Position numbers and translations under genes: made by a program. The notes below the pieces were generated by a model. The model worked only from the letters and a program-made list of their open reading frames with translations, made no database searches and was not told the origin of the DNA. From Candidatus Komeilibacteria bacterium (lineage in GTDB: Bacteria > Patescibacteriota > Patescibacteriia > UBA1558 > UBA10009), in NCBI GenBank assembly GCA_030688315.1, contig JAUYIT010000027.1, forward strand, positions 33,135-97,134: DNA of 64,000 nt, given 5' to 3'. This document shows, in pieces, positions 1,383 to 55,426 of the stretch (positions are counted from its first letter, which is position 1; every line of letters begins with the position of its first letter).

Positions 1383-3464
1383 TTATTTCTTCCCTCTGGC
1401 TTCCACAATTTCCGCTTCCACGTTTTTGGGCACTTCGGCGTAATGGTCAAATTCCATGGAGTAAGAAGCCCGGCCCTGAGTTAACGAGCGGAGCGAAGTG
1501 GCGTAGCCAAACATGGCCGCGAGCGGCACCATGCCGTCAATCACCTTCATTTGCGACCGGTCGGTCATTTCATTAATCTGTCCGCGCTTGGAGTTAAGGT
1601 CGCCGATTACATCACCCATAAATTCTTCGGGCGTGACAATTTCAATTTTCATCACCGGTTCCAGCAGAACCAACCCGGCTTTACGTGCCGCTGACTGAAA
1701 AGCCATGGAGCCGGCAATTTTAAAAGCCGCTTCAGAAGAGTCAACATCGTGGTACGAACCATCGTACAGCGTGACTTCAAAATCGATAAACGGATAACCG
1801 GCTAGCACGCCATTGTCGGAGGCCTCTTTAATACCTTTTTGAATAGGCGTGATAAATTCCTTGGGAATGGCGCCGCCCTTAATTTCATCCACAAATTCAA
1901 AACCTTTACCTCTTTCCAACGGTTTGATCCTGATTAAGCAATGGCCGTATTGACCGCGGCCGCCCGATTGGCGGATGTACTTGCCTTCGGCTTCGGCTTC
2001 ACCTCTAATGGTTTCTTTGTATGCCACCTGGGGTTTACCCACGTTGCATTCAACTTTGAATTCACGTTTCATTCTATCAACAATAATATCCAAATGCAGT
2101 TCGCCCATGCCCGAGATAATGGTTTGCAAAGTTTCTTCGTCGGTTTTAACGCGGAAAGTGGGATCTTCTTCCATTAGTTTTTGCATAGCCATACCCATTC
2201 TTTCCTGATCCTGCTTAGTTTTGGGCTCAATAGCCACGGAAATAACCGGGTCAGGGAAAATAATGGATTCCAGCACCACACGGCGATCTTCGGAACACAA
2301 GGTATTGCCGGTGTAAGTTGACTTCATGCCCACCAAGGCGGCAATGTCGCCCGCGTAAACTTCATCCACCTCTTCGCGGTGGTTGGCGTGCATAATCAAC
2401 ACGCGGCCGACTCTTTCCCGTTCGCCGGAAGTGGTGTTATAAATATAAGAACCGGCCTTAAGCGAGCCCGAGTAAACCCGGAAAAAACACAGTTTGCCCA
2501 CAAACGGATCAGTAGCGATTTTAAAAGCCAGAGCGGTAAACGGCTCATTATCCACCGGCTTGCACAAAACTTTTTTATCCAAATCATCGGCCATGGAGGC
2601 CTCCAAAGGCGGTACATCCAACGGCGAAGGCAAATAATCACAGACCGCGTCTAGCAAAAACTGCACGCCTTTGTTTTTTAAAGCGCTGCCGCAAAAGATC
2701 AGCACCAATTGATTGGTAATCACGGCGTGGCGGGCGGCCTTTTTAAATTCCTCAATGGAAATTTCCTGGCCTTCCAGATATTTGGTCATTAAAGCGTCGT
2801 CGGTTCCGGCTACGGCCTCAAACAGCTGATCGCGGTATTTTTCCACCAGTTCTTTCATGTCTTCCGGCACTTCGGTTTCTTCCACATCTTTGCCCAAATC
2901 ATCGCGGTAATAATAGGCCTTGCGATTCAGTAAATCCACAATACCGGCAAAGGTATCGGCCGCGCCAATCGGCAATTGCACCGGATAAGCGGCTTTAGTT
3001 AAACGATTATGAATTGAGGCCTCGTCTTTATAAAAATCGGCGCCCATGCGGTCCATTTTATTGATGAAGCAAATGCGGGGCACGTGGAATTTTTCGGCCT
3101 GATGCCAAACGGTTTCGGATTGCGGTTCCACGCCGGCCACGCCGTCAAACACCACCACGCCGCCGTCTAAAACCCTTAAAGAGCGTTGAACTTCCACGGT
3201 AAAGTCAATGTGGCCCGGGGTGTCGATAATATTAATCTGGCAATCTTTCCAAAAACAGGTGGTAGCGGCGGAAGTAATGGTAATACCCCGTTCCTTTTCC
3301 TGTTCCATCCAGTCCATTTCGGCGGCGCCTTCGTGCACTTCGCCGATTTTGTGCTTTTTGCCGGTGTAAAACAAAATCCGTTCACTAACGGTGGTTTTAC
3401 CGGCGTCAATGTGGGCAATAATGCCGATGTTGCGGTATTTTTCTAAAGGATATTTTCGGGGCAT
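1383..3464 (-). CDS. fusA: elongation factor G
   Basis: 693 aa. GTPase G1 motif [20 protein letters not shown] domains II-V. Conserved str-operon position after rpsL-rpsG. Confidence 0.97.
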
Positions 3465-3498
3465 ATGATAGTTTATGAATTAATTGATGAGAAGCGAC

Positions 3499-3632
3499 GG
3501 TACAAAAGCCATTGCGGTCATTGCGAGGAGCTTCAGCGACGAAGCAATCCCGTTGTTTATGGTATGAGTATCGGGATTGCTTCGCCCCGACGTAAAGTCG
3601 GGGCTCGCAATGACAGTACGGGCTTTTGTACC
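3499..3632. repeat. GC-rich nested-palindrome (MITE/REP-like) repeat, copy 1, in the rpsG-fusA intergenic region
   Basis: Outer inverted repeat ggtacaaaagcc/gggcttttgtacc enclosing modules gtcattgcgagg...cctcgcaatgac, gacgaagcaatccc...gggattgcttcgcc and ccccgacgtaaagtcgggg. The same modules recur at 17738, 34097, 53351 and elsewhere. The 78-aa plus-strand track ORF 3465..3701 is simply its translation. Confidence 0.8.
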
Positions 3633-3655
3633 GGAGCGAGCGGGTCGCGGGGTGA

Positions 3656-4120
3656 TTATGCGAAGTGGGCAAAAGCCTTGTTGGCTTCAGCCATGCGATG
3701 AGTATCTTCACGCTTTTTAACGGCGTCGCCTTCGCCTTTGGCTGCCGACATCAGTTCGTTGGCCAATTTATCGGCCATGGGCTTGCCTTTGCGGCTGGCG
3801 GCGGCATTAATGATCCACCTAAACCCTAACGACAATTTGCGGTCGCCGGCCACCACCATCGGAATCTGATAGTTGGCGCCGCCGATTCTTTTACCCTTAA
3901 CTTCCACGGTGGGTGAAACGTGCTTTAAGGCCTCTTCAAAAACTTGCAAAGGATCGCTTTTGGTGGCCTCGGCAATTTTTTTAAAGGCGCCGTAAACAAT
4001 GCTCTGGGCCGTGGCCTTTTTGCCATCGCTCATAATGTAATTAATGAACTTGGCGATTTTAACGCTCTTAAACTGGGAATCCGGAGCGATTTTTCTTTTG
4101 GGTGCTTGTTTGCCTCTCAT
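3656..4120 (-). CDS. rpsG: 30S ribosomal protein S7
   Basis: 154 aa with S7 signature regions (KRKIAPD..., GKKATAQSIVYGAF..., PMVVAGDRK...). Lies between rpsL and fusA. Confidence 0.95.
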   Translation of the reverse strand: MRGKQAPKRKIAPDSQFKSVKIAKFINYIMSDGKKATAQSIVYGAFKKIAEATKSDPLQVFEEALKHVSPTVEVKGKRIGGANYQIPMVVAGDRKLSLGFRWIINAAASRKGKPMADKLANELMSAAKGEGDAVKKREDTHRMAEANKAFAHFA

Positions 4121-4807: not shown

Positions 4808-5452
4808 TCAAGCAGCGCCAAACAGGCGGCCGATGAGGTTGAAAAAGAAATTAAACAAACCGGAAAAAACGCCGATGTTGGAAAAGTTATCAATCAAAAT
4901 CAGCCCGAGTAAAATAAACGGCCCGCGGGTGGCAAACTTGACCTTAAAATCATTAAACTTATCGGGCAAAGCGTTCATTAAAATATGCGACCCGTCCAAA
5001 GGCGGAATGGGCAGCAAATTAAAAACGCCGAGAATCAGATTAATTACCACCAGCATGTACACAAAATTGACCAGCAGATTTTCCGGACCCAAAGCGGTTT
5101 GCGTGGCCAAAAATTTGAATAAAAAACCGAAGATGATCACGCTGGCAAAATTAACCGCGATGCCGGCCAAGGAAACCAGATTGTCGCTTAATTTGCCGCG
5201 TTTGAGGTTATTAGGATTAACAGGCGTGGGGCGGCCCCAGCCAAAACCGGCCAAGACGAGCATCAAAATGCCGATGGCGTCAATGTGCACCAGCGGGTTT
5301 AACGTCAGCCGCCCCGCTTGTTTGGCCGTATCGTCGCCCTGCCAGTAAGCGGCCAAAGCGTGGGCGAATTCATGAACGGTAATGCCGTAAACAATGGCCA
5401 ACAACCAGGCCACAAACAACATTGGTTCTTGGAACAATAAATTCAAAATCAT
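4808..5452 (-). CDS. site-2 protease family (peptidase M50) membrane metalloprotease
   Basis: HEFAHALAA (HExxH) in a TM helix plus an NLLPIPPLDG (LDG) motif, polytopic. The track ORF extends to 5509 across the tRNA-Pro gene (the WFESS-type artefact MREVVGSNPTT); start trimmed to the ATG at 5452. Confidence 0.8.
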   Translation of the reverse strand: MILNLLFQEPMLFVAWLLAIVYGITVHEFAHALAAYWQGDDTAKQAGRLTLNPLVHIDAIGILMLVLAGFGWGRPTPVNPNNLKRGKLSDNLVSLAGIAVNFASVIIFGFLFKFLATQTALGPENLLVNFVYMLVVINLILGVFNLLPIPPLDGSHILMNALPDKFNDFKVKFATRGPFILLGLILIDNFSNIGVFSGLFNFFFNLIGRLFGAA

Positions 5453-8763: not shown

Positions 8764-9017
8764 ACAAAAAACCTCTAAAATAAGAGGTTTTTGAGTACGG
8801 GGTAGCCCCTCCGACAGAAGAGCATGATTGGAAGTTACTCTATCCAGACGAGCCACTAGTTTCCTGGAGCCACTGAAGTTCATTACAACCTCTTCTTGAC
8901 TTTCGGAGAAAAAGTTACGGCTGCGGGATGTTCGCAAGAGTTCGACTGATAAGCCGCCTCTAATGTGGAACTTCCTATCATCTTAATTGTATAGCTCCAA
9001 TCCGCTTTTATCGGAGG
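8764..9017 (-). ncRNA. candidate structured small RNA (unclassified; 5'/3' ends can pair as in 6S-type or P1-type closing stems)
   Basis: 460-bp gap with no credible ORF. A minus-strand sigma70-like promoter (TTGCCA-17 nt-TATACT) sits at 9025-9053 and an intrinsic terminator (ACCTCT-aaaataag-AGAGGT + T-run) at about 8766-8795. The 5' segment GTACCCTCCGA is complementary to the 3' segment TCGGAGGGGCTAC. No RNase P P4, tmRNA T-arm/tag or SRP helix-8 consensus was recognised. Confidence 0.35.
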
Positions 9018-9053
9018 GTACTTTAAGTATAGCAATCCCGTGATGGACTGGCA
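9018..9053 (-). promoter_or_regulatory. sigma70-like promoter for the candidate ncRNA
   Basis: Minus strand reads ttgccagtccatcacgggattgctatactt: TTGCCA, a 17-nt spacer, then TATACT. Confidence 0.45.
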
Positions 9054-9148
9054 AGCTTTTTTTGATAAAAATAAGGTCTTTTACCTAGCTTTAGCCAATC
9101 ACAAAAAATATATAAGCAAAATAGTTTAACTCAAACAATTTTTGGATA

Positions 9149-9679: not shown

Positions 9680-10414
9680 ATGGCTAAAAAACCCTTATTA
9701 CCATCCAAAGCCCTGGAAAATTTTGATATCAGTGAAATAAAACAAGGTAAATACTTTACCGAAGGGCGCTATGGCGGAAAACTAGGTGATAGAAAATGGG
9801 GACTAAAAGGACAATTGGCCGCGTATAAACGTACCGGCAGATTTAGTGAAACAAAAAATTTATCAAAAAAGAATGTTGATGAGATATACAGACTAATTTC
9901 CGAGCGACTTAAAAAGCATCAAAAGGCTCAATCAGCGATAATTACCAGAAAAGATAAAATTAAAATAAACGCCGAGGGATTAAAATTACGCAGAACAGCC
10001 GGAAGCGGTTTTACCAAAGTCGATCAAAAAGATTTAAAAAAAATTGTTTCAACATTGCAACAACAAAGTCAAAGCGCGGTGTTTAATGATAAAAAACCGG
10101 GGGCTGAAAAACTTGCCAAGGTCAGACAAAGCCGAGTTATGGATAGAATTTTAGAGAAAGAACATGAACCGAATATTTTAGAAAGCAAAGATCCTGTTAA
10201 ACCCACAATTGCTATTAAACCCGCCCTTGCTTCTCCTCTGCCGCCAACTCATTCCCAAGCGGGTCAGTCATCGCCTGTTGTGATGGCGCCGACCAACTTT
10301 GCTCCCGGCCCAAACAGCGGTTCTCAAGAAGCCTATCAACCGCCCGCGCCGGCCGCTCCATTAACCGGCGAAACTAAACCAACATTTGAACCGCGGGACT
10401 TACAAATAGATTAA
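9680..10414 (+). CDS. hypothetical Lys-rich protein with Pro/Gln-rich C-terminal tail
   Basis: 244 aa. A TATAAT box lies about 30 nt upstream. Basic N-terminal half, PPAPAAP low-complexity C-terminus, no conserved motif recognised. Confidence 0.5.
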   Translation: MAKKPLLPSKALENFDISEIKQGKYFTEGRYGGKLGDRKWGLKGQLAAYKRTGRFSETKNLSKKNVDEIYRLISERLKKHQKAQSAIITRKDKIKINAEGLKLRRTAGSGFTKVDQKDLKKIVSTLQQQSQSAVFNDKKPGAEKLAKVRQSRVMDRILEKEHEPNILESKDPVKPTIAIKPALASPLPPTHSQAGQSSPVVMAPTNFAPGPNSGSQEAYQPPAPAAPLTGETKPTFEPRDLQID

Positions 10415-10524: not shown

Positions 10525-11364
10525 CTACTGCATGTTAATGGCGTCCGGATGATTGTAGTTAGCAACCTCAAAGAGTGAGCTTATCCACTGCTTTGAACGC
10601 AGACTGAGCGGGTTCGCTTCTGCAGATCGTCCGCCTCGGTAAAAAGCAACCGAACAGTCCGGTCGCTTTTTACCGAGGCGGACTGACCGAACATTGGCAA
10701 TGGGCATACCGCCATCGACGAACGCGCGGGCCGGACGGTATTGGCTAGAAATGACCTCCAGATTAACATCCCCGGTAAAAGCGATGTCCAATGGATTGGG
10801 TATAGCGCCCCAGTATTCCTCGTCGAGGTTGATACCAGCCAGACGCAGACAATCGGAACTAAGAAACAGTCCATCTTGCCTACAGGCGTTGCGAGCTAAA
10901 CCCCATGAACCGACCGCCGTCGCCACGACCATCCCGTCGCCTTTTAGCTCCAAACTGCCGCGGGCGCAGGCCAAACCGATGGTTAAATTCTGTCCAGAAT
11001 CCCTTTCCACCCAGGCCTCATTTAAACCGAAGTGAATTGACTGCCCACGATCAGTTTGACAAACCGCTTGCAGTAATGGCAACTCTCTGACCACCAAAGG
11101 TCTGCCTACCAACCTTGAAAAATCATTCTCATGATTTAACAGGAATCCCTTGGAACCGGTATTGAGCCCAAGAAACGGCAATCCCATATCGCCGTACAGA
11201 CCAACGGCCTTTAGCATTGCTCCGTCGCCGCCGAGACTAACAATAAGACTGGGGTTCTTGTTATCAATAAATGAGGCTAAACTACCAGCCAGCCGCGCCG
11301 ATGCTTCATGCTCAGGATTAAAATGAAGCAACAAGCGTGGTTCATCCAAAACGATCCTTTCCAT
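10525..11364 (-). CDS. nadK: NAD+ kinase
   Basis: 279 aa. GGDG(A/T)ML motif (SLGGDGAMLKA) and NE/D acceptor motif region. GC content is clearly above the window average and a perfect 17-bp inverted repeat lies inside the 3' end. Confidence 0.8.
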   Translation of the reverse strand: MERIVLDEPRLLLHFNPEHEASARLAGSLASFIDNKNPSLIVSLGGDGAMLKAVGLYGDMGLPFLGLNTGSKGFLLNHENDFSRLVGRPLVVRELPLLQAVCQTDRGQSIHFGLNEAWVERDSGQNLTIGLACARGSLELKGDGMVVATAVGSWGLARNACRQDGLFLSSDCLRLAGINLDEEYWGAIPNPLDIAFTGDVNLEVISSQYRPARAFVDGGMPIANVRSVRLGKKRPDCSVAFYRGGRSAEANPLSLRSKQWISSLFEVANYNHPDAINMQ

Positions 11365-13422: not shown

Positions 13423-14817
13423 TTAGATTTCCAAATTAGACCAGTTAAATGAAGCCAGCGCACTGGCAATATTAAGGATATAGCTTAAACCCAGCCAAAC
13501 CGGCCAGGCAACCAGTTGCCCCAGCGGCAGCCAGATTAAGCCGAGAGTGACGGCAATAAACCCGAGCAGCATCATCATGGGAATGGAAGGCAGAACTAAA
13601 AGGTTAGCAAGCGGCGCGATGACTGACAGGCGGCCGAATTGCCACAAAATAAGGGGCGAGGTAAAAGCAATGGCCGATAAAGTGGTAGCCAATGATTCTC
13701 TGATGTTTAAGGGGTTGGGCAGCCATTTTAACCATTTGGACATGGTAGGCGAAAAATAAACCAAACCCAGAGTGGCTAAAAAAGACAGTTGAAACCCGGC
13801 GTCATAAATTAATACTTGAGGATTAAACAACAGCATGATTACGGCGGTAATAGCCAAAGTATTGGTTATTTTACCGGCCCGGCCCAACGTGGTGGACATT
13901 AAAACAATCGTACCCATCACGCCGGCTCTGATAATGGAAGCGGGAAAACCGGTAATAGCCACAAAAAAGGCAATGCCTAAAACAATCAAGCCAAATGCTC
14001 TTTGCCGGGAAAGGCCCAAGCCGATAAATAATGAAGTTAAAGCCACGGCGATAATAGTGATGTTATAACCGGAAACAGCGATGATGTGAGTAATGCCCGA
14101 GCGGGTAAAATCGTCTAACACATTTTGCGGCATCCCCTTTTTGGCGCCCCACAATAAACCGCCCAAAAACGCGGCTTGCGGTTCGGGCAGAATTTGCCCC
14201 GAAACCCAAATGAGTTTGGTTTTGATTTTTAAAATAGCTGACTTGATGATACTGCCGTGGTAATGGCCGGTTAACTTTAGCTGGCCGCGGTAGCAGACGG
14301 CATATATATTTTCCTTAGCCAAAAACTTATCGTACTTAAAATCCTCAATCGGCTGCGGCGCGGCCAGCTGGCAGTTTATTTCCAAAATATCGTTAAATTG
14401 ATACTGCGGATATAACGGCGCGTTAACCAAAACCAGACCTTTGATTACTTTTGCCTGACCGTTAATAACAATTTTTTCGGCAGCAATTTTATATTTTATC
14501 TGATCGGTCCTCACGTCCGGCTCATCGCCTATAACTCCATTAAAAATAACTTTTTGCTCATTATAAAAAGCAATATGTCGCTCATTGATATTGGGAATTG
14601 ACAATTGATAGCGGCTAACGCCTAAAACGAAAAACAACAAACATAGTCCGATCAACATCAAAAGCGACTTTATTCGACCAAAAATCAAAATAATGACGCC
14701 CAGTAATACCCAGCCGTAGATAATTTTCCAGTCAATAACAACAAACGACGCTAAACCAACGCCGGCAATAAATGACAGACACGAATATAAAACCAGCTGT
14801 GATTTTCTGAATTTCAT
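13423..14817 (-). CDS. comEC: ComEC/Rec2 family DNA internalisation channel (DUF4131 + competence domain), lacking the MBL domain
   Basis: Polytopic membrane protein with the ComEC competence-domain pattern. The track start at 14847 is a TTG; the ATG at 14817 (MKFRKSQ...) is preferred. Confidence 0.75.
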   Translation of the reverse strand: MKFRKSQLVLYSCLSFIAGVGLASFVVIDWKIIYGWVLLGVIILIFGRIKSLLMLIGLCLLFFVLGVSRYQLSIPNINERHIAFYNEQKVIFNGVIGDEPDVRTDQIKYKIAAEKIVINGQAKVIKGLVLVNAPLYPQYQFNDILEINCQLAAPQPIEDFKYDKFLAKENIYAVCYRGQLKLTGHYHGSIIKSAILKIKTKLIWVSGQILPEPQAAFLGGLLWGAKKGMPQNVLDDFTRSGITHIIAVSGYNITIIAVALTSLFIGLGLSRQRAFGLIVLGIAFFVAITGFPASIIRAGVMGTIVLMSTTLGRAGKITNTLAITAVIMLLFNPQVLIYDAGFQLSFLATLGLVYFSPTMSKWLKWLPNPLNIRESLATTLSAIAFTSPLILWQFGRLSVIAPLANLLVLPSIPMMMLLGFIAVTLGLIWLPLGQLVAWPVWLGLSYILNIASALASFNWSNLEI

Positions 14818-14889
14818 AAATCGCTTTTCACAAAAAAACAGAGCCAAAAAAATCTTTGACCCTGTTATTTAAATTTTGCTAATTATTTT

Positions 14890-17702: not shown

Positions 17703-17737
17703 TATGGTATTCTACCAAATCCACGGATAAAATGAAA

Positions 17738-17770
17738 ACCCGCCCCGACTTTACGTCGGGGCGGGTTTAT
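17738..17770 (-). terminator. intrinsic terminator built from a repeat-family hairpin module
   Basis: aaaCCCGCCCCGACtttacGTCGGGGCGGGttt. The inner ccccgac(gtaaa/tttac)gtcgggg matches the module in the 3499-3632 repeat. Confidence 0.5.
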
Positions 17771-20395: not shown

Positions 20396-20454
20396 AATAA
20401 TTTTTTACTTATGTGTTTACTTGATTTGATAATTCCAAATGGTTTCCAATTCGG

Positions 20455-20560
20455 GATTCCAAAGGGGCTTTGCTCCTTTGGTCAAGCCCGCCGAATCGGC
20501 GGGCGCGAAGTCTTCGGGGTCCCTAAGAGCAGGCGAGCCAAAGGCGAGCGGGTCTTGGGG
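20455..20560. repeat. GC-rich multi-hairpin repeat element between ftsA and ftsZ
   Basis: ccaaaggggctttgctcctttgg hairpin, the gcccgccgaatcggcgggc module (shared with copies at 34110 and 53440), and a ggggtccct...gcgagccaaaggcgagcggg segment. No ORF. Confidence 0.7.
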
Positions 20561-20564
20561 TGTT

Positions 20565-33700: not shown

Positions 33701-34086
33701 GGCACGCCGGTGGCGCTGCTTAAACGGCTGATTATAAAAGCGGTAATAGCGTAGGCCGATAAAATAACAGCCAGGCCAATCACGGCATTAGTCATGATTT
33801 TTTTGGCGTCGGCGATTTTGTCTTCTTCGCCGCCCGCCGTCATCCATAAAAAACCGGCGTAGATGATTAAACCCGTGGCAATCACGCCTAAAAACCCGAG
33901 AAAAATATTAATGATTAATGCGATGGTGTCCTTGAGTCCGCGCGTGCCTAAATTAACACTAGTCAAATCATTAACGCCGTAATTATCAATATTTTGCGCC
34001 AAAACCGCTGACGGGGCGATTACAACAACCGCGCTAATAAACAGCAGGAAGATAAGTATTAATTTGGTTTTGCGTTTTATAAACAT
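24715..34086 (-). CDS. giant (3123 aa) Cys-rich cell-surface protein: N-terminal VirB2/TrbC-like pilin module + Ig-like + IPT/TIG + coiled coil + CGDG...EQCD Cys repeats + C-terminal lectin/ConA-like domain
   Basis: Single uninterrupted ORF (ATG...TAA). Residues 1-120 carry a signal peptide and a two-helix hairpin (IINIFLGFLGVIATGLIIYAGFLWMTAGGEEDKIADAKKIMTNAVIGLAVILSAYAI). Several IPT/TIG-like segments follow (e.g. PRIMAVSPDNGAKGNWVTISGRGFG, PNIVDFEPKNGNVGQYVNIYGSDFG), then a long Q/N/L-rich coiled coil (residues ~1980-2130) and at least 8 CGDG(I/V)xxxxEQCD Cys-rich repeats (~2560-2870). The terminal ~250 aa are beta-rich and lectin-like. More than 150 Cys overall. Confidence 0.85.
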   Translation of the reverse strand: MFIKRKTKLILIFLLFISAVVVIAPSAVLAQNIDNYGVNDLTSVNLGTRGLKDTIALIINIFLGFLGVIATGLIIYAGFLWMTAGGEEDKIADAKKIMTNAVIGLAVILSAYAITAFIISRLSSATGVPGGPGGPGDPDIPDLQRQFRVTSILPRGQQRIRNVVPQISFSQVINPALIDENNVLTNQEGIRVERANGQGGFERVAGTLTIDPNNQQRVKFTPQTNCPEPNERLFCFGYDENNADLNLYRVTVLSEAGVSLRSVGGLAVTCNGNSCVGEFRVGGLVDTQNPSVDFTEAVNRAGQHFDLTGRAIFSLDEVYNLFAQATDDGGLTSVDFFVAGNFLNTNEAGQDTPLEFLAQTEWPTNNLQPQAFELTTRAYDAAGHESALGRASVLIRPAHCFNNIQDENFEETGVDCGGACGACAGDPCGEVIENRCTDADNQICASNVCNVDSCLCQQPPRIMAVSPDNGAKGNWVTISGRGFGNTPGQIFIGDVEGRLPRFCQASWTDTQIILELPIELDLGNTQLSVITSQNLTSNRVDFSVNDIERPGICMLVPDQNPPGANFTLVGYQFGNINDPNQEKSVYFGRAEQNLAAAGPVWRAVEGRAFVSANLPNLNPGQTSVRVRIDGQDSNALAITVLPENNYPNIVDFEPKNGNVGQYVNIYGSDFGQYQEGQSKVIFTDNVEGTFDFPVECRADSSFWQDDHIIVKVPEGAADGTIMVQRADGRQDTTDQSFDYQAEADLAPGICSLYPREGQVGSTFEVAGEYFNGGTLKLGEQNLNARPDNQNQHFNNVPVPEGARSGPVKVVINNELQSNSLDFSVTGGAGGEEESPDSYYQWQFTTCENCVVPEVVESQSCQLGLASPTPLKNSLNNFVNTQISATFNTDMNNASFDLGSTVVVKSCGNGETPGNCAQVQNIDGEFEFGQGNSGEYFVLSLSSALQPSTWYQVTLGDLRSEQENLAMAEPYVWFFKTRDNNEVCQINAVSVNPNQRLIRNNNPVYLNDEVTYSGYPYNAENCNICPDTFSWSWNSSNPNQAEIDTESRVNQSLMTAKAITQSPVNITAQASNDEGQSGQGTAQVEIVPRDFGILFSQSCSIQPQSPSPYPSYQNACLNAKIAVQFNSIITDGLLAADALTLKQRGNNQTVAVTMAGGIYYEAGGRNGLRGVIFESEQNLLPNTWYEVSLNNNLANVDGGQFIGARSWQFKTQSGNELCQFNTVLVIPGTAILQPQESQNYSAETVDRESCQLLKEPNDLRWSWLSENETVAEVGQSNNHQNSALAKEIGETKIRAQALGEENTGNNGKLTVSQGEDIYLTITQHHPSGENVCQNALGQVRFNLGINQDLITPANFIVVEHGNDCPEAGCAVLTDISFNQDKTIISLLPQENNNLWKQQTRYEIKIRGNAEGIKTADEEELAQRGCGQGMIWDAGTAACSWSFTVGQNRCEVAAIEVTPASATINIGTWQEWSAYAVSAEGELLSDPIENWRTANANIATVDFSEGDTSRAQSRGIGEGETVIAAIIGNAPPGTASIRVNDILNGPAITGVVPQDGAQSVCRNAMVKVDFDKLLNKDTVKQNNFQLEYQVEAASQPAGCREEVVYHQNSGNWLSADNLIGQWLNNLAGKIFSSLWNSLFNRAQAVAYWCPVAGQWLEEHAGGQSQVYFSLTQALPVVSTVRATVVGGENGVKAVNGQPLAGNFSYSFRTGPDVCDLDFVTVAADQESGQKDWTFTTSFDNETDNNVEGENAEKFDTIYDGDKKYTASGFSQTGEQLAAIAGVYEWNWQWQTSNQSVAALDQSGPGFMVVKAQNKNGQSNIIASAVFPAVYQKPALSASAKAIVDICENRWNPITGDLNPDYKFIDPTYNFSLSYCRDAGGAGTMDDLPALFEPQPLDISSDNDPAKDDLLREYLIPVPTTGDVLGLRVYKNNLHLNPRAWYQKNINAAVQGNPSNTEVDGYEAIQDGRTVYVAAANVPQGSLSYNSDNNPVFVKADGWLANLWQGLKNVLADLSVNNILAAVAPPGTPPVAAFQQNFQNFNVVANRFANEGFRPADLAGAQADLNQARADYNRAALVQEGVSPQELNAYEAQLANLAADLTRYQGLVNGQTDLQNLLNELNRLQITGQQADRFIADFNNFNQGLSNGLQTSDLTDFEKQLDALQANADDLAGDLNVVVPNFNANDFRVINVGYRVNRINNAYTNIYLLSYNQNASPKTMEIVKRLMAKWQFNSNIDNPDLKEKLRRDVKRLADLTAVTQTVEAYQAGHNGAVPALTAGSFLSGRSNSKWPSWNQTLAPALSASLPVDPINKFNKCVVCTEPELVNAGFEDPNDLAGPAAAGDPGLNDESGWRLTLERAGLGVSHNTNRSFVKEGSASLGILSRNAQTGIVQPISLLPNTTYELSAWVYVVSGRAHLTFDGNDYGNEWLTPPDVTGWVLLKNRLVTNPAVGGGANGSNNFIFIRSHEGAATFYVDQATIQTQGGNCGYDRQTCWNPDANQSRGAFACDADSYFYSYETIGNNNYLLAAKMETTATWLSDQDQANRFNPHFRLSTAGVLGCNTQPIGARCGDGVVNGNEQCEPGMSNNYCPAGARWYTPRYLGCEAVGSKFGECTWVNPDNYGDDWDNLSIGQRCGGYCGDGILNSADWDYQISPAEQCDISAEAGADGFSNGVINGSDRDNQYACSASCRDIGGWCGDNIVQSFYGEQCDGNANGWSCQDGSTPSCNNNTCGVSCDSGGAYYGRCGDGYKQPEELCDGQIGVSQNNYCANSCQLLRCLDGYDACIDGGSVANGCETNIAYDINHCGRCGHRCPQPAHSSAVCSAVRGGWGCSFNCNDGYHREGDVCVASAECGNDVIEVGEACDDGPNNGNGNYCRADCSGFDLGQRIFLDNFDDAGVYSVPTGESWLAREHGNFEPAVWSIVQLNDDNNPFTLQGANPSDGDPQCGSSDRWFLKALVPPVFDVQNQNQNVTIVSRIKIKQGNPNTLILGNYDYNAQNAGQESAYALWPNINNQHRLSLVKVNRMDEHSGTDGVMSVLDQFSPVVENQPSLVPSETWYWLAMKISHSGNRANIKYIDWQDGEAMPAVADWHNATDNDNALNGRTFGVAVWGDCSTSWYDDFQVYIP
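33712..34086 (-). other. VirB2/TrbC-like pilin module (signal peptide + two hydrophobic helices with GGEEDKIADAKK loop) at the N-terminus of the giant protein
   Basis: Near-identical to residues 1-125 of the 592-aa paralogue and similar to residues 140-213 of the 327-aa protein at 56932..57915. Confidence 0.6.
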
Positions 34087-34096
34087 TTATCTTTTT

Positions 34097-34142
34097 GTCA
34101 TTGCTTCGTCGCCCGCCGATTCGGCGGGCTCCTGGCAATGAC
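34097..34142. repeat. short repeat-family copy (gtcattgc-ttcgtcg-cccgccgattcggcgggc-tcctg-gcaatgac) between the two pilin-module paralogues
   Basis: Shares the gtcattgc/gcaatgac terminal inverted repeat with copies at 3520 and 53368 and the gcccgccgattcggcgggc hairpin with 20478 and 53440. It may act as the terminator of the 592-aa gene. Confidence 0.7.
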
Positions 34143-34143
34143 G

Positions 34144-35922
34144 TTACTGGCAGTTAGGACTAACCTGCCCATCATCGCACGGGCCAACGGCCGGATTCAA
34201 ACAATTTTGATACATGTCCTGGATGCCGGCGGTCAGGCGCGGATTATAAACCGTTAACGGATTCAAATAAGGCGAGTAAGTCCTGATTACAGCCGTTGTT
34301 GCCCGATCAACATTTTGCTTGTAAACATTAAAACCGCCTTCCGGATAGCAAGTTAGGTCATCAGGAAATTCCGCCCCGTCGCAGGCGAATTTATAAACGG
34401 TATAGTTATCGCTGTTAACGGTGGAAGAGCGCAACAGTTCGCTAAAGCGCGCGTTGATCCGGCTGTTTTTGGGCACAGTGTCGGAACCCTGCTCCGGAGT
34501 GATACTTCTAACGGTTGGGGGCGTTAAATCCAGTTCATCGGTGGTATTAAAAGAAGAAGTGTAATTATCGTCGGGCTGGCCTTGAGCCGCGCCGTTAGCG
34601 TTGCCGTCCAAAGAATTGCCCGCGGCATCGGTAATACCCGATAACGGATCAAGCGTTTCGTTGTTGTTGACAATGGCGGCCTTAGCCAAAATAGCCAGCA
34701 GTTCGCTGCCCGGCAAACATTTGGGCGTTACCCCGCAGGAATTTTGTTCAACCGGCTGGCCGTTAACCTCACATACGGCAACCGGAATAAATTCCACGGT
34801 TCTAAAACGGTTGCTGATCATAAACTCGCCCGCTAAATATTGAACCGCTTCCTGTTCATTTTCATAACTGATTAAAATATTATTAAACGGTTCCTGGGCA
34901 TTGCCAGTCGCCACGCCAGTGGCGCTAAGCAAATTAACGGCCTCATTAAAATTGATTTGGAAAATAGCGTTTTTAGGTACGTTTGCACCGGCGGCCGGTT
35001 CCACGCTTTCCACTTGAGGCGGGGTTAAATCCGATAAATTGGAAACCTGGAACGACCAGTTAAAACCGCCGCTAAAGAAAGCTCTGTTGCCGCCAACTTT
35101 GGCAATCTGGTCGCTTAAATTAACCGTGTAATCGCTATTACCGTCCCCCGAACCCAGTAAAGGATTGGGATTAAAAACAAAATCACGGTTATTGCGGGTT
35201 AAGGCGATTACCTGGTTGGCCGCCAAAAAAGAATTGTCCGCGCTTCTGTTAATAATCTTGACTGACGGCACAACGGAATTGTCGCGCAAAGTAAATTCTT
35301 TAAGGTTGCCGCAAATTATTTCTTGAGGCAGGCCGGCGCATTCTTGCGGACGATTTTGAGTGTTAATGATGGTGGCCGTATCCATGGCTTCCTTAAAACT
35401 GACCATCAGCAGTACGTTGCGCGGAACGTCTCTGGCGCCCGGTTCCGGATAAACGTCGCGTAAAATTCCCCCGCCCAAAGCGCCGATGTTAACGTCAAAA
35501 GACCCTCTGCCCCCGCTGGGATCTTCGCCTCCCCGAGTGGCTTCATCCAGCCGGCTGATAATAAAACGGGCAATTAAATATGAAGACATGATAATAGCCA
35601 GGCCAATGACGGCGTTGCGGATGATTTTTTTGGCGTCGGCGATTTTGTCTTCTTCGCCGCCTGAAGTCATCCATAACCAGCCGGCATAGATAATGAGGCC
35701 CGTGGCAATCACCCCCAAAAACCCGAGAAATATATTAATGACCAAGGCGATAGTATCCTTAAGTTGGCGCGTGCCCAAATTGACCGAATCAAGATCATTA
35801 ATACCAAAATCGTCAGCGCTTTGCGCCAGTGCCAAAGCCGGTAAAACAAAAACAGCCACAATAAAGATACTCATCAATAAAGTAGCTGTTTTAAAGTTTA
35901 AGTTAAAAACCCTTAAAAGCAT
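34144..35922 (-). CDS. 592-aa surface protein: N-terminal VirB2/TrbC-like pilin module + Ig-like (SbsA/Big-type) domains, Cys-rich C-terminus; paralogue of the giant protein N-terminus
   Basis: Residues 40-125 (LKDTIALVINIFLGFLGVIATGLIIYAGWLWMTSGGEEDKIADAKKIIRNAVIGLAIIMSSY) are about 85% identical to the giant protein. The remainder is beta-rich and ends CLNPAVGPCDDGQVSPNCQ. Confidence 0.8.
   Translation of the reverse strand: MLLRVFNLNFKTATLLMSIFIVAVFVLPALALAQSADDFGINDLDSVNLGTRQLKDTIALVINIFLGFLGVIATGLIIYAGWLWMTSGGEEDKIADAKKIIRNAVIGLAIIMSSYLIARFIISRLDEATRGGEDPSGGRGSFDVNIGALGGGILRDVYPEPGARDVPRNVLLMVSFKEAMDTATIINTQNRPQECAGLPQEIICGNLKEFTLRDNSVVPSVKIINRSADNSFLAANQVIALTRNNRDFVFNPNPLLGSGDGNSDYTVNLSDQIAKVGGNRAFFSGGFNWSFQVSNLSDLTPPQVESVEPAAGANVPKNAIFQINFNEAVNLLSATGVATGNAQEPFNNILISYENEQEAVQYLAGEFMISNRFRTVEFIPVAVCEVNGQPVEQNSCGVTPKCLPGSELLAILAKAAIVNNNETLDPLSGITDAAGNSLDGNANGAAQGQPDDNYTSSFNTTDELDLTPPTVRSITPEQGSDTVPKNSRINARFSELLRSSTVNSDNYTVYKFACDGAEFPDDLTCYPEGGFNVYKQNVDRATTAVIRTYSPYLNPLTVYNPRLTAGIQDMYQNCLNPAVGPCDDGQVSPNCQ
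35548..35922 (-). other. VirB2/TrbC-like pilin module of the 592-aa paralogue
   Basis: See 33712..34086. Confidence 0.6.
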
Positions 35923-39073: not shown

Positions 39074-40807
39074 ATGTCGCCTTTAGACGGACTAAAAAGA
39101 ATCCTGCCTAACAAAGATAAAATTTACCGACCTAACAGCCGGATTAATTTTTTAATAAACCAGCCCGCCTCGCCTGACGAGCAGGCTCGTCGAGGCGGGC
39201 CCTCTTCGCCTTCGACTTATCGAGGCGAGCCAACTGCCGACCTGGACGAGCCCAGGCGGGTGCCGTTAGCCGACCAAAACGAGACGATAAAATCGACTGG
39301 TTCCGGCCAAAATTATCATCAACCCTCCCCCGAAAGGTTTTCCCGGCCGGCCATGGACGGGAAAAAGCACGCTTTGATAAAAATCATTTTGATCAGTTTT
39401 TTGATCATTATCATTTCCGGCGTCATGTATCTTTCGGAAAAACTGTTTGGCTCGGGCATGGGCGTAAATTTAAATCCGTTGTCGGGCATTAAGTGGCTGG
39501 TGAGCCCGGCTGATAAAAGGATTGACGGCGAGCTAAACGACCGCGTTAACATTTTAGCCATGGGTGTGGGCGGTGAAGGCCATGACGGACCGTATTTGAC
39601 CGACACCATCATCGTCATCAGCATTAAACCCTCTACCGGCGAAGTGGGCCTGCTCTCTTTGCCGCGCGACATGATTGTTAAAATAAAAAATGGCGGCTGG
39701 CCAAAAATAAATTCTGTTTATACCTTGGGCCGGACGCAAGACCCCGATCACGCGGAAGAATATGTTGCTCAAGTTATCGGCGAATTACTGGATCTGCCCA
39801 TCCATTATTACGGCATTATTACCTTTAGCGGCTTTGAAAAATTTATTGATGAAATCGGCGGCATCAGCGTTAACGTACCCAGAGCTTTTACCGATTACTT
39901 GTACCCCACCAAAAATTACAAAGTGCAAACCGTGGGCTTTAAGGCGGGCCTGCAAAACATGGACGGCGAAGATGCCTTGATTTACGCCCGCAGTAGGCAC
40001 GGCAATAATTTTGAGGGTTCGGATTTTGCCCGCAGCCGCCGTCAGCAATTGATTCTGCAGGCGGTTAAGGAAAAGCTGTTTAAATTTTCCACCCTTTTAA
40101 GTCCAAATAAAATGGGAGCGATTATGGATTTGCTGGGAGAAAGCGTGGAAACCAATCTATCTATCTGGCAAGGTTTAAAAATCGCTCAAATGCTTGAAAA
40201 AACCGATGACGACAAAATTTACCGCTTGGTTTTGGATGATTCACCCGACAGCTTATTGGAACCCGGTTACGCTCCCGATGGCGCCTGGATTTTACAACCC
40301 AAAGACGGCAACTATCAAACTTTGGCCCGCCAGTTTAAAAATATTTTTAACATTGGAAAAATCAAGACGGAGGGCGCCAAACTGGAAATTCAAAACGGCA
40401 CCGAAATTGAAGGGTTGGCTTACTGGACCAATGCTTATTTAGCCAAATTGGGCTATACTATTATTAAATACGGCAACGCGCCCACGCAGGATTACCAAAG
40501 AACCGTTATTTACGATTTAAGCGACGGCCAAAAAAATACCACCTTAAAATGGCTTAAGCAGGAATTAAACGCTTACACCACCGAAGCGGTTGAAACGGAT
40601 TTAACCAAAAATGAAGCGCCAGTTGACGCAGCCAATTCAACCGAAGCACAGAAACAGCCGGACTTTTTAATAATCCTGGGCACCGACTATTCTTCAACTT
40701 TTAAACTGCCCGAACCAAAACCCGTTCAAACAACTTCTACCAAACCTCTTTTGCCCGGCGACGAGTCCGTTGATTTGTCCACTTCCACAAAAGAGCTAAC
40801 CGAATAA
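39074..40807 (+). CDS. LytR-CpsA-Psr (LCP) family cell-envelope phosphotransferase
   Basis: LCP domain (DTIIVISIKPSTGEVGLLSLPRDM...) after a TM helix. Contains the 39163-39200 palindrome in its first 93 codons; the alternative start MDGKK at 39353 would place that palindrome in the leader instead. Confidence 0.85.
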   Translation: MSPLDGLKRILPNKDKIYRPNSRINFLINQPASPDEQARRGGPSSPSTYRGEPTADLDEPRRVPLADQNETIKSTGSGQNYHQPSPERFSRPAMDGKKHALIKIILISFLIIIISGVMYLSEKLFGSGMGVNLNPLSGIKWLVSPADKRIDGELNDRVNILAMGVGGEGHDGPYLTDTIIVISIKPSTGEVGLLSLPRDMIVKIKNGGWPKINSVYTLGRTQDPDHAEEYVAQVIGELLDLPIHYYGIITFSGFEKFIDEIGGISVNVPRAFTDYLYPTKNYKVQTVGFKAGLQNMDGEDALIYARSRHGNNFEGSDFARSRRQQLILQAVKEKLFKFSTLLSPNKMGAIMDLLGESVETNLSIWQGLKIAQMLEKTDDDKIYRLVLDDSPDSLLEPGYAPDGAWILQPKDGNYQTLARQFKNIFNIGKIKTEGAKLEIQNGTEIEGLAYWTNAYLAKLGYTIIKYGNAPTQDYQRTVIYDLSDGQKNTTLKWLKQELNAYTTEAVETDLTKNEAPVDAANSTEAQKQPDFLIILGTDYSSTFKLPEPKPVQTTSTKPLLPGDESVDLSTSTKELTE

Positions 40808-43575: not shown

Positions 43576-43869
43576 TTTTATCCCTCCTTAATTTAGAAGA
43601 CCTATGAAACCAAAAACCCGTCCTTGATAACCAAAAACGGGCCTGGTTGAAGTGTGCAATGGAAGCACGACAAAGGTCGCGTTTGCCCGAAAATACTACC
43701 TGCCAGCGTGAAGCCCCGTTACAAGAACAAGGCCCCAACTTGGTGGCTACTAACCAGGGCTAGGAGGGCAACCCGGCGTTGGCTGCTGGCAAGCAGAACT
43801 TTAGGGCAAAATAGGGCTATTTAAATAACATTTGGATTTTTATCTTAACACTTTTTTTCGGGCTGTCAA

Positions 43870-43903
43870 CCCCTTACCAGTTTTTTAAAAAACTGGTAAG
43901 GGG
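43870..43903. promoter_or_regulatory. perfect 17+17 bp palindrome in the divergent lipoprotein/dprA intergenic region
   Basis: ccccttaccagtttttt|aaaaaactggtaagggg with no mismatch. It lies more than 290 nt from any gene end, so it is not a simple 3' terminator. Confidence 0.4.
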
Positions 43904-44047
43904 TCAAGGGTATTTGACTGAATAAAATAAATCCTCTAAGATAAGCAAATATGAGCGCATATAAGCTCCTCGGCTCGGAAATATGAAAGCTTCGCTTTCC
44001 TATTTCTCTCGCTCTACGTCGCCTATAATCAACTGAAAAGCGATTTT

Positions 44048-45136
44048 ATGGACAAATATCTTTTGGCGTTAAGCCAAGTGGACGGCCTTGGGTCAGCCAC
44101 TTTAATAAAATTAATCAAGCAGTTTGGATCCGCGGAAGCCCTTTTTAAGGCTTCTGTTTTTGATTTAAAAAAATATGAGTTAAGCTCGGGCCTGATTGAT
44201 TTAATTAAACAAGCTCAAAAAATAGAAACCAATGACTTAATTAAAGAAATTGACCGGGAACAGTTGAGTGTTTGCTCATATTATGACGAATGCTATCCAA
44301 AGATGTTAAAAGAGATTTTTGACCCGCCGATTCTGTTTTATTATCGCGGCAATTTAAAGCTGGCTGATAAACCGGCCTTGGCCGTGGTGGGTTCCCGAAG
44401 AATTTCCGGTTACGCCCAGCAAATTATGCCCAAACTTTTACAGCCGGTTATTGAATCCGGCATTACCATTGTGTCCGGTTTAGCTTACGGCGTGGACGGA
44501 CTTTCGCATCAACTGGCTTTGGAATATGGAGGACAAACCATCGCGGTGGTGGGCTCGGGTTTGGGCTGGAACAGGATTTATCCTCCGGGCAACGTTAAGC
44601 TGGCCCAAAAAATCATTGCCCAAAACGGCTTGCTGATTTCGGAAAATCCGCCCTTGTTTGAAGCACTGCCTTTTACCTTTCCGCGCCGCAACCGGATAAT
44701 TTCCGGTTTAGCAAAAGCGACCTTGATTGTGGAAGCCGCTCAAAAATCCGGCGCCCTAATTACCGCCGCCTGCGCGGCCGAGCAAAACCGCGAGGTGCTG
44801 GCCGTGCCCCAAAATATTTATTCCCCAACCTCGGCCGGAGTCAACAACCTGCTTAAAAACGGCGCCAAAGCCGTGACTTCGGCCGAAGACATTTTGGAAA
44901 TTTTTAACCTTAAAGCCGATATAAATATTAATAATCCAGTGACCGAAAAAATGCTGGTAGAACTTAATAATGATGAAAAAACCGTTTATAACAGTTTAAG
45001 CGCCAGCCCTGTCCACATTGACAAAATCATAGAAAACTGTAATCTTAACACGTCTTTGGTCAATAGCTGGCTAGTTCAGCTGGAGATTAAGGGTTTAATT
45101 AAAAATCTGGGCAACCAGAATTACGTTAAAACGTGA
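44048..45136 (+). CDS. dprA: DNA processing protein DprA (Smf)
   Basis: 362 aa. N-terminal SAM-like region, Rossmann DprA core (LAVVGSRRIS...GVDG...), C-terminal wHTH. Ends with TGA. Confidence 0.9.
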   Translation: MDKYLLALSQVDGLGSATLIKLIKQFGSAEALFKASVFDLKKYELSSGLIDLIKQAQKIETNDLIKEIDREQLSVCSYYDECYPKMLKEIFDPPILFYYRGNLKLADKPALAVVGSRRISGYAQQIMPKLLQPVIESGITIVSGLAYGVDGLSHQLALEYGGQTIAVVGSGLGWNRIYPPGNVKLAQKIIAQNGLLISENPPLFEALPFTFPRRNRIISGLAKATLIVEAAQKSGALITAACAAEQNREVLAVPQNIYSPTSAGVNNLLKNGAKAVTSAEDILEIFNLKADININNPVTEKMLVELNNDEKTVYNSLSASPVHIDKIIENCNLNTSLVNSWLVQLEIKGLIKNLGNQNYVKT

Positions 45137-47071: not shown

Positions 47072-47168
47072 AAGGCCTTGCCCGCCTTTGTCATCACGAT
47101 TTTTCGTAGAGACGCACAATTGCGCGTCTCTACCTTGTATTACGATGACCATCTGCGGGCAAGGCCTT
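47072..47168. repeat. nested-palindrome repeat copy between folC and rel
   Basis: Outer inverted repeat aaggccttgcccgc/gcgggcaaggcctt (the same outer repeat as the 53351 copy) enclosing the agagacgcacaattgcgcgtctct hairpin. Confidence 0.7.
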
Positions 47169-51051: not shown

Positions 51052-51138
<87 letters not shown>

Positions 51139-51285
51139 CGTCGTAATTCGGTTACAGCTTCCGTTTTTCGACTGAGTCGAAAAACTCCAGCTTTCACCAA
51201 ATTACTCCTTTTAAAAATCCCTTTCGCTTACGCTCAAGGGATTTTTATTATTTATTAAATGGACCGAACCTGCTAAAATAGGGAT

Positions 51286-53349: not shown

Positions 53350-53350
53350 C

Positions 53351-53478
53351 AGGCCTTGCCTTTCACCGTCATTGCGAGGAGCGGAGCGACGAAGCAATCC
53401 CGATGTTTATACTAGTAATAACGGGATTGCCGCGCCCGCCTAATCGGCGGGCTCGCAATGACCGCTATGGCAAGGCCT
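53351..53478. repeat. nested-palindrome repeat copy filling the convergent recG/radA gap
   Basis: Outer inverted repeat aggccttgcc/ggcaaggcct, inner gtcattgcgagg...ctcgcaatgac, gacgaagcaatcccg...cgggattgc and gcccgcctaatcggcgggc modules. Confidence 0.8.
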
Positions 53479-53481
53479 GCG

Positions 53482-54819: not shown

Positions 54820-55147
54820 TTTCTATTTCTTGCAAAATTACAGCTAAATGATACTCAAGATCCTTCTGGTTGATATTTTCCGTATTACCCTTAAAATAAA
54901 TAGTGATGGGAATCAAGGTATTCCTGAATTCCCAAAGAAAAACAATAACCCGAAATGACTTGCTCTTGCCCCTAGGTAAATCTGAACTTTTCAGACGCAG
55001 TTTATATAACTTATGACCCAAGGGTGTAACTAAATCTTTATTAAAATCCTTTAACTGCTTAATTAAATCATCAGTTAAGCCCGGGTATTTCTTTAAAAGA
55101 GATTTTAGTTGTCTTAAAAAATGAACTGCTAAATAAATCTCATACAT
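54812..55147 (-). CDS. RelE/ParE-superfamily toxin-like protein (type II TA toxin)
   Basis: 111 aa, basic. Its start overlaps the radA stop region and it sits 2 nt downstream of an RHH protein gene. The pattern KLYKLRLKSSDLPRGKSKSFRVIVF..IYFKG is consistent with the RelE/HigB fold. Confidence 0.5.
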   Translation of the reverse strand: MYEIYLAVHFLRQLKSLLKKYPGLTDDLIKQLKDFNKDLVTPLGHKLYKLRLKSSDLPRGKSKSFRVIVFLWEFRNTLIPITIYFKGNTENINQKDLEYHLAVILQEIENE

Positions 55148-55151
55148 AAAC

Positions 55152-55415: not shown

Positions 55416-55426
55416 AAGTATATTGA

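Follow-up and report, generated by a model that had tools for sequence, protein, structure and literature searches.

What kind of element fills the gaps between genes with GC-rich, nested palindromes in the genome of a Candidatus Komeilibacteria bacterium? The question arises from a 64,000-nt stretch of contig JAUYIT010000027.1 (the whole of this stretch is referred to here as the window), in which an original prediction had recognised a modular family of such palindromes at at least seven sites and had likened them to both miniature inverted-repeat transposable elements (MITEs) and repetitive extragenic palindromes (REPs). The present analysis makes it probable that they form a nested mosaic of REP-type elements, similar to the bacterial interspersed mosaic elements (BIMEs) of enterobacteria, in a genome of the Patescibacteria (Candidate Phyla Radiation, CPR). 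The mosaic is made up of a REP of the CGTC superfamily in a bipartite form, a GTAG-tagged REP, and lineage-specific host hairpins together with longer elements.

The repeat unit and its relatives

All of the modules that had been predicted, M1 to M4 and an outer repeat, are present within a few bases of where they had been placed, and the gene contexts were borne out: the elements lie between rpsG and fusA (site A), recG and radA (site B), the pilin-module paralogues (site C), a folC-like gene and rel (site D) and ftsA and ftsZ (site E), and in the 5′ region of an LCP gene (site G), whereas the copy of M3 near 17742 (site F) was rightly taken for a terminator, having a 14-bp stem and a T-run. 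M3, at 3585–3603 and 17743–17761, gives four strand matches against 0.00 expected, and M4, at 20486–20504, 34111–34129 and 53434–53452, gives six against 0.15. The outer repeat AGGCCTTGCC has four exact copies, which form both arms of a pair of hairpins (47073, 47158 on the minus strand, 53351, and 53469 on the minus strand), and with at most one mismatch it gives 13 matches against 5.2 expected, a number that none of 100 shuffles reached. M1 (GTCATTGCGAGG) lies at 3517–3528 (plus), 3603–3614 (minus), 34131–34142 (minus, one mismatch), 53368–53379 (plus) and 53451–53462 (minus); taken alone, with up to two mismatches, it is not significant (six matches, five of them within elements, against 3.7 expected). 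M2 (GACGAAGCAATCCC) lies at 3538–3551 (plus), 3573–3586 (minus), 53388–53401 (plus), 53423–53436 (minus) and 34097–34110 (minus). The modules are indeed shared and recombined between sites, the same M3 and M4 hairpins and outer stems recurring in different combinations, but the seven sites are not one family; instead, at least four element types share hairpin modules, namely a CGTC-like unit (A, B and C), a composite with a GTAG REP (D), an oriented element of ~115 nt (E), a terminator (F) and an intragenic palindrome (G).

M1 and M2, which had been listed as separate modules, belong together as the 5′ half and the 3′ half of a single conserved REP unit, because their flanks are near-invariant and the copies occur singly or in inverted pairs; likewise, the apparent transposon-type terminal inverted repeat (TIR) formed by M1 consists of two units head to head. 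The unit is YGTC-ATTGC-GAG(GA)-variable GC hairpin-(GAC)GAA-GCAAT-CC. It is ~25–45 nt long and comprises an unpaired YGTC tag, a lower stem P1 of 5–8 bp (ATTGC:GCAAT), a purine-rich internal loop (GAG/GAA or GAGGA/GACGAA), an apical hairpin P2 of free sequence and a C-rich tail. There are two forms, short (GAG-hairpin-GAAG) and long (GAG-GA-hairpin-GAC-GAAG), and a long and a short unit are paired at sites A and B (with ~20 nt between them), in the folC/rel gap of the relative L216 and on the Methylosinus trichosporium plasmid pOB3b1, all of which align column by column.

A scan of IMG/VR for exact TCATTGCGAG-N4–16-GAAGCAATC found at least 184 copies in at least 120 viral contigs. Among the 184 copies listed, position −1 is G in 100%, position −2 is a pyrimidine in 96% (C 48%, T 48%) and position +1 is a pyrimidine in 98%; after GCAAT the tail reads C, then C or T (46/52%), then C or A (48/33%), the window copies having CCC. 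Sixty of these copies stand in inverted pairs, mostly with a spacer of 22–24 nt, and 124 are single. Their P2 inserts comprise 88 distinct sequences, those of 8 nt or more being nearly all hairpins, often with a GNA or GAA triloop, and the commonest short form being GCGNAGC; for the unit as a whole, relatives of the window included, the insert ranges from 4 to >100 nt. M3 and M4 are interchangeable fillers of the apical P2 slot. In P1, true family members show two compensated and six uncompensated changes (the 69 pattern matches are mostly chance), and a fully co-varied variant, ATTCC:GGAAT, is found in L216. One viral contig (L043, 2696–2818) departs from the usual inverted pairs in having four units repeated in tandem, all in the same direction, with a period of 33 nt. 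Hammerhead-like or K-turn motifs, integron attC sites, dif/Xer sites and CRISPR arrays were dropped as candidates on sequence grounds.

Inverted ends GTCATTGCGAG..CTCGCAATGAC around a variable core, a size of ~80–100 nt, non-coding sequence and dispersed copies are features that the elements share with MITEs, in which case they would be deletion derivatives of DDE insertion sequences (ISs) with GTCATTGCGAG as the TIR, moved in trans. Such an origin is highly improbable. A search for target-site duplications found no direct repeats flanking the 45 listed pairs, whose flanks extend the palindrome by one Y...R pair; single 'ends' predominate (124 of the 184 viral copies listed), and each is itself structured and includes a 3′ half, GAAGCAATC, for which a TIR would have no need. 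No ORF-bearing element or autonomous parent bounded by these ends was found, the distant inverted copies in phage contigs enclosing ordinary phage genes (portal, DUF6712 and helix-turn-helix) and no transposase, and, in contrast to the TIRs of ISs, the ends hardly vary between phyla. Of the original double label, the REP part stands, on the dispersed palindromes and their turnover, and the MITE part falls for want of a target-site duplication and an autonomous partner.

REPs fall into GTAG-tagged and CGTC-tagged superfamilies (Di Nocera 2013, BMC Genomics 14:522, PMC3733652). The CGTC REPs, as characterised in that paper, have an unpaired CGTC or TGTC tag (CCTC is allowed), a stem of 8–9 bp that starts with A-T pairs, a loop of 4–5 nt and a 3-nt unpaired tail near CCA; they occur mostly as head-to-head dimers, often heterodimers, between unidirectional or convergent open reading frames (ORFs) near stop codons, some being intragenic, and they are found in Proteobacteria, Chlorobi, Bacteroidetes, Spirochaetes and Thermotogae without a dedicated transposase and include Neisseria dRS3 and Rickettsia RPE-4 and RPE-6 (PMC3733652). 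The Komeilibacteria unit shares the C/TGTC tag, the A-T stem start, apparently the short C-rich tail, the head-to-head (hetero)dimers with semi-conserved spacers, the position near stop codons in gaps of unidirectional or convergent ORFs, occasional in-frame intragenic copies, the patchy spread across phyla and the lack of an associated transposase. The unit obeys the grammar of the superfamily in that its frame and tag profile is as in CGTC-1, which in the viral collection has the same frame, GTCATT...AATC, with G at −1 in 98% and a pyrimidine at −2 in 94%; it departs from it in lacking the perfect stem of 8–9 bp and the loop of 4–5 nt. The tail of CGTC-1 in the viral collection is clearly C-C-A-G, and no hybrid dimers or co-occurrence of the unit with CGTC-1 were seen in the loci examined.

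Inverted doublets of GTAG REPs are known as REPINs. With these and the REP-associated tyrosine transposase (RAYT) systems of E. coli and Pseudomonas, the elements have in common that they occur singly or as inverted doublets folding into long hairpins, that they are extragenic, that they lack a target-site duplication and that their expansion is lineage-specific. The GTAG tag itself is found in the core of site D (47105–47134) only, the main unit having GTCA rather than GT[AG]G, and no RAYT gene was seen among the ORFs scanned (50 of ~56) in the 64-kb window. REP families are usually genus-specific, whereas the Komeilibacteria unit, with 21 conserved bases, is near-invariant across phyla and in viral contigs. 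Like the BIMEs of enterobacteria, the elements are mosaics of palindromic units and short motifs in combinations that vary by locus; the BIMEs, however, are linear arrays of alternating units, in contrast to the nesting in loops seen here, and the sequences are unrelated. The Nostocales small dispersed repeats (SDRs), which are reportedly ~21–27 nt long and dispersed, with nested insertions and no known enzyme, are alike in size and nesting, and on Nostocales plasmids the unit adjoins heptamer repeats.

The unit is found in unannotated intergenic plasmid DNA of alpha-proteobacteria (Methylosinus, Methylocystis and Novosphingobium), gamma-proteobacteria (Legionella and Halomonas) and cyanobacteria (Calothrix, Aulosira, Trichormus and Tolypothrix), the Methylosinus copy lying between convergent genes, like site B. 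Five units were counted in the window and six or seven in the 17.5 kb of L216; the ~110 kb of sequence from more distant relatives contain none. Relatives from a scan of genome contigs with ribosomal protein S7 had at most 62% identity among the matches listed, and in their 584 kb the relaxed frame ATTGC..GCAAT occurs twice, once as a plausible unit; a RecG scan of metagenome contigs returned only relatives of at most 49% identity. Literature searches with the unit sequences and a REP-encoded peptide gave primer noise or nothing, and a search on palindromic repeats in Patescibacteria gave nothing relevant. REP-type repeated palindromes are already known as a kind of selfish bacterial DNA; what is new against the literature examined is a bipartite unit whose apical slot tolerates insertions, together with the nesting, the host phylum and the abundance in viral contigs, the last two being unreported in PMC3733652.

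Sites in the window and their turnover

The elements are built as follows (coordinates are those of the window, and a strand is given where one applies).

3498–3633: site A, composite between fusA (1383–3464, minus) and rpsG (3656–4120, minus)
3498–3510 and 3621–3633: site A, outer 13-bp stem, CGGTACAAAAGCC paired with GGCTTTTGTACCG, enclosing a head-to-head CGTC-like heterodimer
3517–3551, plus: site A, left unit of the long type, GTCATTGCGAG-GAGCTTCAGCGAC-GAAGCAATCCC, that is, M1 plus M2
3552–3571: site A, dimer spacer GTTGTTTATGGTATGAGTAT, with homologues in the spacers of site B (53-nt match, 83%) and L216 folC/rel
3572–3614, minus: site A, right unit of the short type, GTCATTGCGAG-M3 hairpin CCCCGACTTTACGTCGGGG-CGAAGCAATCCCG, with M3 (3585–3603) in the apical P2 slot
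3634–3655, minus: remnant of the 5′ end of a 'type 3' element, TCACCCCGCGACCCGCTCGCTCC, immediately following the stop codon of rpsG
53350–53480: site B, in the convergent recG/radA gap, outer stem CAGGCCTTGCC / GGCAAGGCCTG around a CGTC-like heterodimer
53368–53402 and 53422–53462 (minus): site B, left and right units, M4 (53434–53452) being P2 of the right unit
34097–34142, minus: site C, single CGTC-like unit with an 8-bp P1, GTCATTGCCAGGAG-M4 CCCGCCGAATCGGCGGG-CGACGAAGCAATGAC
47072–47168: site D, three layers, outer stem AAGGCCTTGCCCGC (47072–47085 paired with 47155–47168), then a T-run
47090–47099 and 47141–47149: site D, middle stem, GTCATCACGA paired with TACGATGAC
47106–47133: site D, core GTAG-tagged palindrome GTAGAGACGCACAATTGCGCGTCTCTAC, cGTAGAGACGC-N8-GCGTCTCTACc
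20440–20564, minus: site E, oriented element of 'type 3', ~115 nt long and immediately following the stop codon of ftsA, with M4 (20486–20504) as the variable hairpin at its centre
17736–17768, minus: site F, intrinsic terminator, a 14-bp stem containing M3 (17743–17761), then TCATTTTATC
39163–39229, plus: site G, two in-frame GC-rich hairpins in the LCP gene, palindrome GCCCGCCTCG..CGAGGCGGGC at 39163–39200 and a second hairpin at 39206–39229

Within the outer stem of site A a second stem pairs GTCATTGCGAG with CTCGCAATGAC and encloses three further hairpins; the inverted arms are 30 nt long and 87% complementary, and the palindromic units in the loop of the outer hairpin are 35–43 nt each. 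The GC content of the gaps at A–E is 0.47–0.59 and that at F is 0.40, compared with 0.16–0.43 in most other intergenic gaps (the window has 45% GC), and the minimum free energy per nucleotide in the A–E gaps, −0.38 to −0.54, corresponds to two to four times the folding energy per base of other gaps. Site A has a predicted fold of −77.6 kcal/mol on the minus, transcribed-sense strand (z −10.9) and −89.9 kcal/mol on the plus strand (z −12.4); against shuffled sequence, the values are −72.1 kcal/mol (z −6.3) for site B and −55.4 kcal/mol (z −11.0) for site D. The DNA fold of site C, which occupies the 57-nt gap between pilin-module ORFs of 592 and 3123 residues, is −17.4 kcal/mol (z −5.9).

The hairpin AGGCCTTGCC(C) is a recurrent, terminator-like host hairpin, the loop of which holds either a CGTC-like dimer or the GTAG-REP composite of site D. 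At site D the outer stem and T-run read as the folC terminator, followed by a conserved rel promoter; the core palindrome belongs to a family found in 93 viral contigs, one copy of which is a single base off that of the window, and the architecture recurs at recG/radA of L216. A third AGGCCTTGCC host-hairpin locus was observed in L201 (1477–1547) and also in L202 and L203, where a GGCCTTGCC hairpin encloses CCCCTCCTTGATAAGGAGGGG, and pyrimidine-run hairpins resembling the latter (for example CCCTCCCTTGTGGGGAGGG) come after single units in several viral contigs. Site E is homologous to the filler of the rpsG/fusA gap in strain L202; the 'type 3' start present after ftsA is also found after rpsG in L202, and site A keeps only the first 20 nt of this element.

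Site G (fold z −3.7) was correctly described as a palindrome inside the LCP gene: it is in frame, within a ~40-residue segment of a hypervariable linker that orthologues lack, and the start codon of the gene is real, because the 30 residues upstream of the palindrome are conserved in orthologues. As an in-frame GC-rich palindrome that sits in the variable linker of a protein conserved elsewhere, site G recalls the Rickettsia palindromic elements (RPEs) and other intragenic REPs, although it has no sequence similarity to RPE-1 and is the one intragenic case confirmed. Another GC-rich palindrome, at 10629–10683 with 27-nt arms (GTCCGCCTCGGTAAAAAGCAACCGAAC / GTCCGGTCGCTTTTTACCGAGGCGGAC) that are 93% complementary, lies inside an ORF (10525–11364, minus), the sole match of which is an N-terminal NAD-kinase domain, and this ORF may hold a second intragenic palindrome insertion.

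Another explanation would be that the elements are intrinsic terminators or operon attenuators of the ordinary kind, inherited vertically and alike only through the constraints on a GC-rich hairpin, and some of the sites fit it: site F is canonical, with its 14-bp stem and T-run, the outer stem of site D is followed by TTTTTGATTT and the conserved rel promoter, and the elements stand at the 3′ ends of genes. However, no T-run is present at A, B or C, 19-nt hairpins that are identical including their loops occur at unrelated loci, and the same units are found in other phyla and in viruses. The presence or absence of elements at rpsG/fusA, recG/radA and folC/rel was found to be strongly polymorphic, orthologous sites holding unrelated fillers or nothing. 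The rpsG–fusA spacer is 191 nt long in the window and 187 nt in L201 (S7 93% identical), where a different nested palindrome stands between the same flanks, CGCTCC and GTCGCT; in L202 and L203, which have the same S7 protein as L201, it is 154 nt of a third sequence, in L204 and L205 (S7 84%) it is of the L201 type, and in L206–L208 (S7 76%) it is 71 AT-rich nucleotides without an element. Between L201 and L202, identity amounts to 98.4% across the 3274 nt that end at the rpsG stop codon and to 95.7% from the fusA start, yet the 182 and 149 nt that lie between these points are unrelated.

The same is seen at the other two loci. In L216–L218, three independent assemblies of a relative whose RecG is 82% identical, recG/radA and folC/rel both retain the outer hairpins CAGGCCTTGCC(C) and AAGGCCTTGCCC, and the inner contents are swapped with respect to the window: the recG/radA gap holds a GTCATCGTAA..CGTAGGGAC..GTCCCTAC composite like site D, and the folC/rel gap a GTCATTGCGAG dimer, the left unit of which has its slot filled by M4. 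L216 has three further elements in other gaps, one of them a single unit that carries in the apical slot a whole ~120-nt palindrome of the type that fills rpsG/fusA of L201, with 94% identity between the two copies. In L219, a 71% relative, recG and radA overlap without a gap and folC ends in an AT-rich hairpin. Because of this insertion polymorphism at orthologous sites, conserved terminators are ruled out as a general explanation; as such the explanation is very unlikely and largely refuted. A long hairpin just 3′ of tRNA-Leu (51143–51205; the tRNA is at 51052–51138) is kept nearly base for base in the 82% relative (L216 gap 4917–5407), in contrast to the variable GC-rich elements.

A selected cis-acting role in RNA was also considered, in which the elements would serve as processing sites for RNase III or RNase E, stabilise mRNA or form a regulatory leader of fusA or ftsZ, and would be recognised by a conserved RNA-binding factor. 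The very stable predicted RNA folds, the placement inside highly expressed operons and the position of single units in phage contigs, often just upstream of a ribosome-binding site and ATG, are consistent with such a role, and the purine internal loop could form tandem G.A pairs. It is nevertheless quite improbable. By rough ORF calls, 23 single units are co-oriented with their flanking genes and 24 are opposite, so that no orientation bias appears; M3 has opposite orientations relative to transcription at sites A and F; orthologous positions are unconserved even between 98%-identical strains; and no Rfam family matches, the whole window giving three tRNAs only at the gathering score and the region of site A (3400–3720) giving no match at E ≤ 10. 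The lack of an orientation bias and the occurrence of M3 in both orientations argue for a selfish or recombinational origin at the DNA level rather than for a sense-RNA signal as the reason for their existence.

Spread of the elements

There is no direct sign of transposition, and no mobilising enzyme was found. None of the 50 ORFs scanned, of ~56 in the window, belongs to a transposase, integrase or Y1/HUH family, and no transposase was found in the syntenic loci of relatives; an ORF near the Calothrix copy that might have passed for a transposase is an IS1595 zinc-ribbon fragment and not a Y1 enzyme. The window does contain genes for ComEC and DprA (13423–14847 and 44048–45136), that is, natural transformation machinery, which makes allelic replacement by transformation plausible for swaps of whole spacers.

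On the reading of the elements as a REP-type mosaic, they would be non-autonomous selfish DNA, copied or exchanged as a single strand or a hairpin by an activity acting in trans, with ectopic or allelic recombination also taking part, in keeping with the presence of comEC and dprA in the genome. The apical loops of existing hairpins would be preferred, giving rise to nesting. Once transcribed, the elements would be expected from modelling to fold into very stable branched hairpins, and these probably act as incidental 3′-end barriers or attenuators between rpsG and fusA, ftsA and ftsZ, and other such pairs.

The same observations could be explained without transposition, by template switching or palindrome correction at replication followed by gene conversion and allelic replacement by transformation. 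Replacement of whole spacers with breakpoints exactly at the gene ends, the swapping of inner contents between two loci with the same outer stem, the presence of comEC and dprA in the window and the lack of a transposase all favour this explanation, which is a serious possibility, if on balance not the one to be expected; it leaves unexplained the same 21 conserved bases in unrelated phyla and phages, and the appearance of 'type 3' and 'type 4' elements at loci that are not homologous and whose flanks have nothing in common. It is a speculative and rather doubtful idea that the units are still-active CGTC-type REPs without a transposase, in a genome of ~1 Mb, with new palindromes inserted specifically into the apical loops of existing hairpins, either the P2 slot or the loop of the AAGGCCTTGCCC terminator hairpin.

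Several points weigh against the interpretation as a REP-type mosaic of the CGTC kind. The polymorphism could result wholly from homologous recombination or transformation between strains, apart from the missing signs of transposition noted above, and the orientation count is a crude test. The tag is CGTC or TGTC in three of the five window units and GGTC in the other two. By comparison with the CGTC REPs of PMC3733652, the Komeilibacteria unit is bipartite, with a P1 of 5 bp (8 bp at site C), a purine loop and a hypervariable P2 in which entire other palindromes can lie, and it is none of CGTC-1 to CGTC-4, as judged only by the REP-encoded peptides of Additional file 3 of that paper (SFPRKRES/VIPAKAGI, VIAGLDPAIH, VIPWLDHGI and RHSELVSGS), which have no match to translations of the unit. 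On independent folding of the unit the evidence points both ways, P2 covariation and P1 compensation being for it and the nearest-neighbour prediction against it, since a canonical single unit folds with −2.7 kcal/mol (z −0.3), no better than shuffles. Nesting within an outer stem is seen in three of 31 viral dimers and is a feature of the Komeilibacteria lineage, not of the unit family. Finally, the counts for the source genome apply to the 64 kb covered here.

Neighbouring features and implications

Some further features of the window were observed beside the elements. The 472-nt non-coding gap upstream of dprA (43576–44047), which is rich in GC (0.70) around 43757 and contains a perfect hairpin with an AT centre at 43860–43913, may be an unrecognised non-coding RNA; there was no credible Rfam match in 42.7–44 kb. 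A hairpin CCCCCGAAGCTCAAAGAGCGGAGGGGG (56076–56110) upstream of small ORFs in the pilin region resembles two L216 copies of AAACAGGGTAAAATCCTCCGAAGCTTTAGCGGAGGAGGATGACCCTGTTT (8964–9136 and 10088–10320), and this resemblance may point to a distinct repeated motif of the leader or terminator kind. Between radA and the T4SS-pilin gene (54812–56826) lie four small ORFs, including that of a Bro-N domain protein (55427–55957); in L219 radA abuts the pilin gene, and the stretch may be a small inserted island. A 277-nt direct repeat with 78% identity (33725–34001 and 35552–35828) spans the 5′ regions of the 3123-residue ORF and of the 592-residue T4SS-pilin/Big_5 ORF, which are paralogous N-terminal modules.

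If the elements were only passively recombined, the result would mean that REPs also exist in Patescibacteria and nothing more. In practice, such palindromes give rise to spurious ORFs and broken assemblies, and they turn the spacers of core operons (str, dcw) into hypervariable strain markers in CPR metagenomes. If the doubtful idea of still-active units were true, it would imply a mechanism of structure-targeted insertion or conversion of single-strand DNA, run by a host or phage factor, with phages as the carriers through which the 21 conserved bases stay the same in CPR bacteria, proteobacteria and cyanobacteria. The nesting, with units in terminator loops and palindromes in the P2 of units, suggests that hairpin loops may be a general insertion slot, and the recent turnover in an organism with a small gene repertoire, and hence a short list of candidates, makes the mobility of CGTC REPs more testable.

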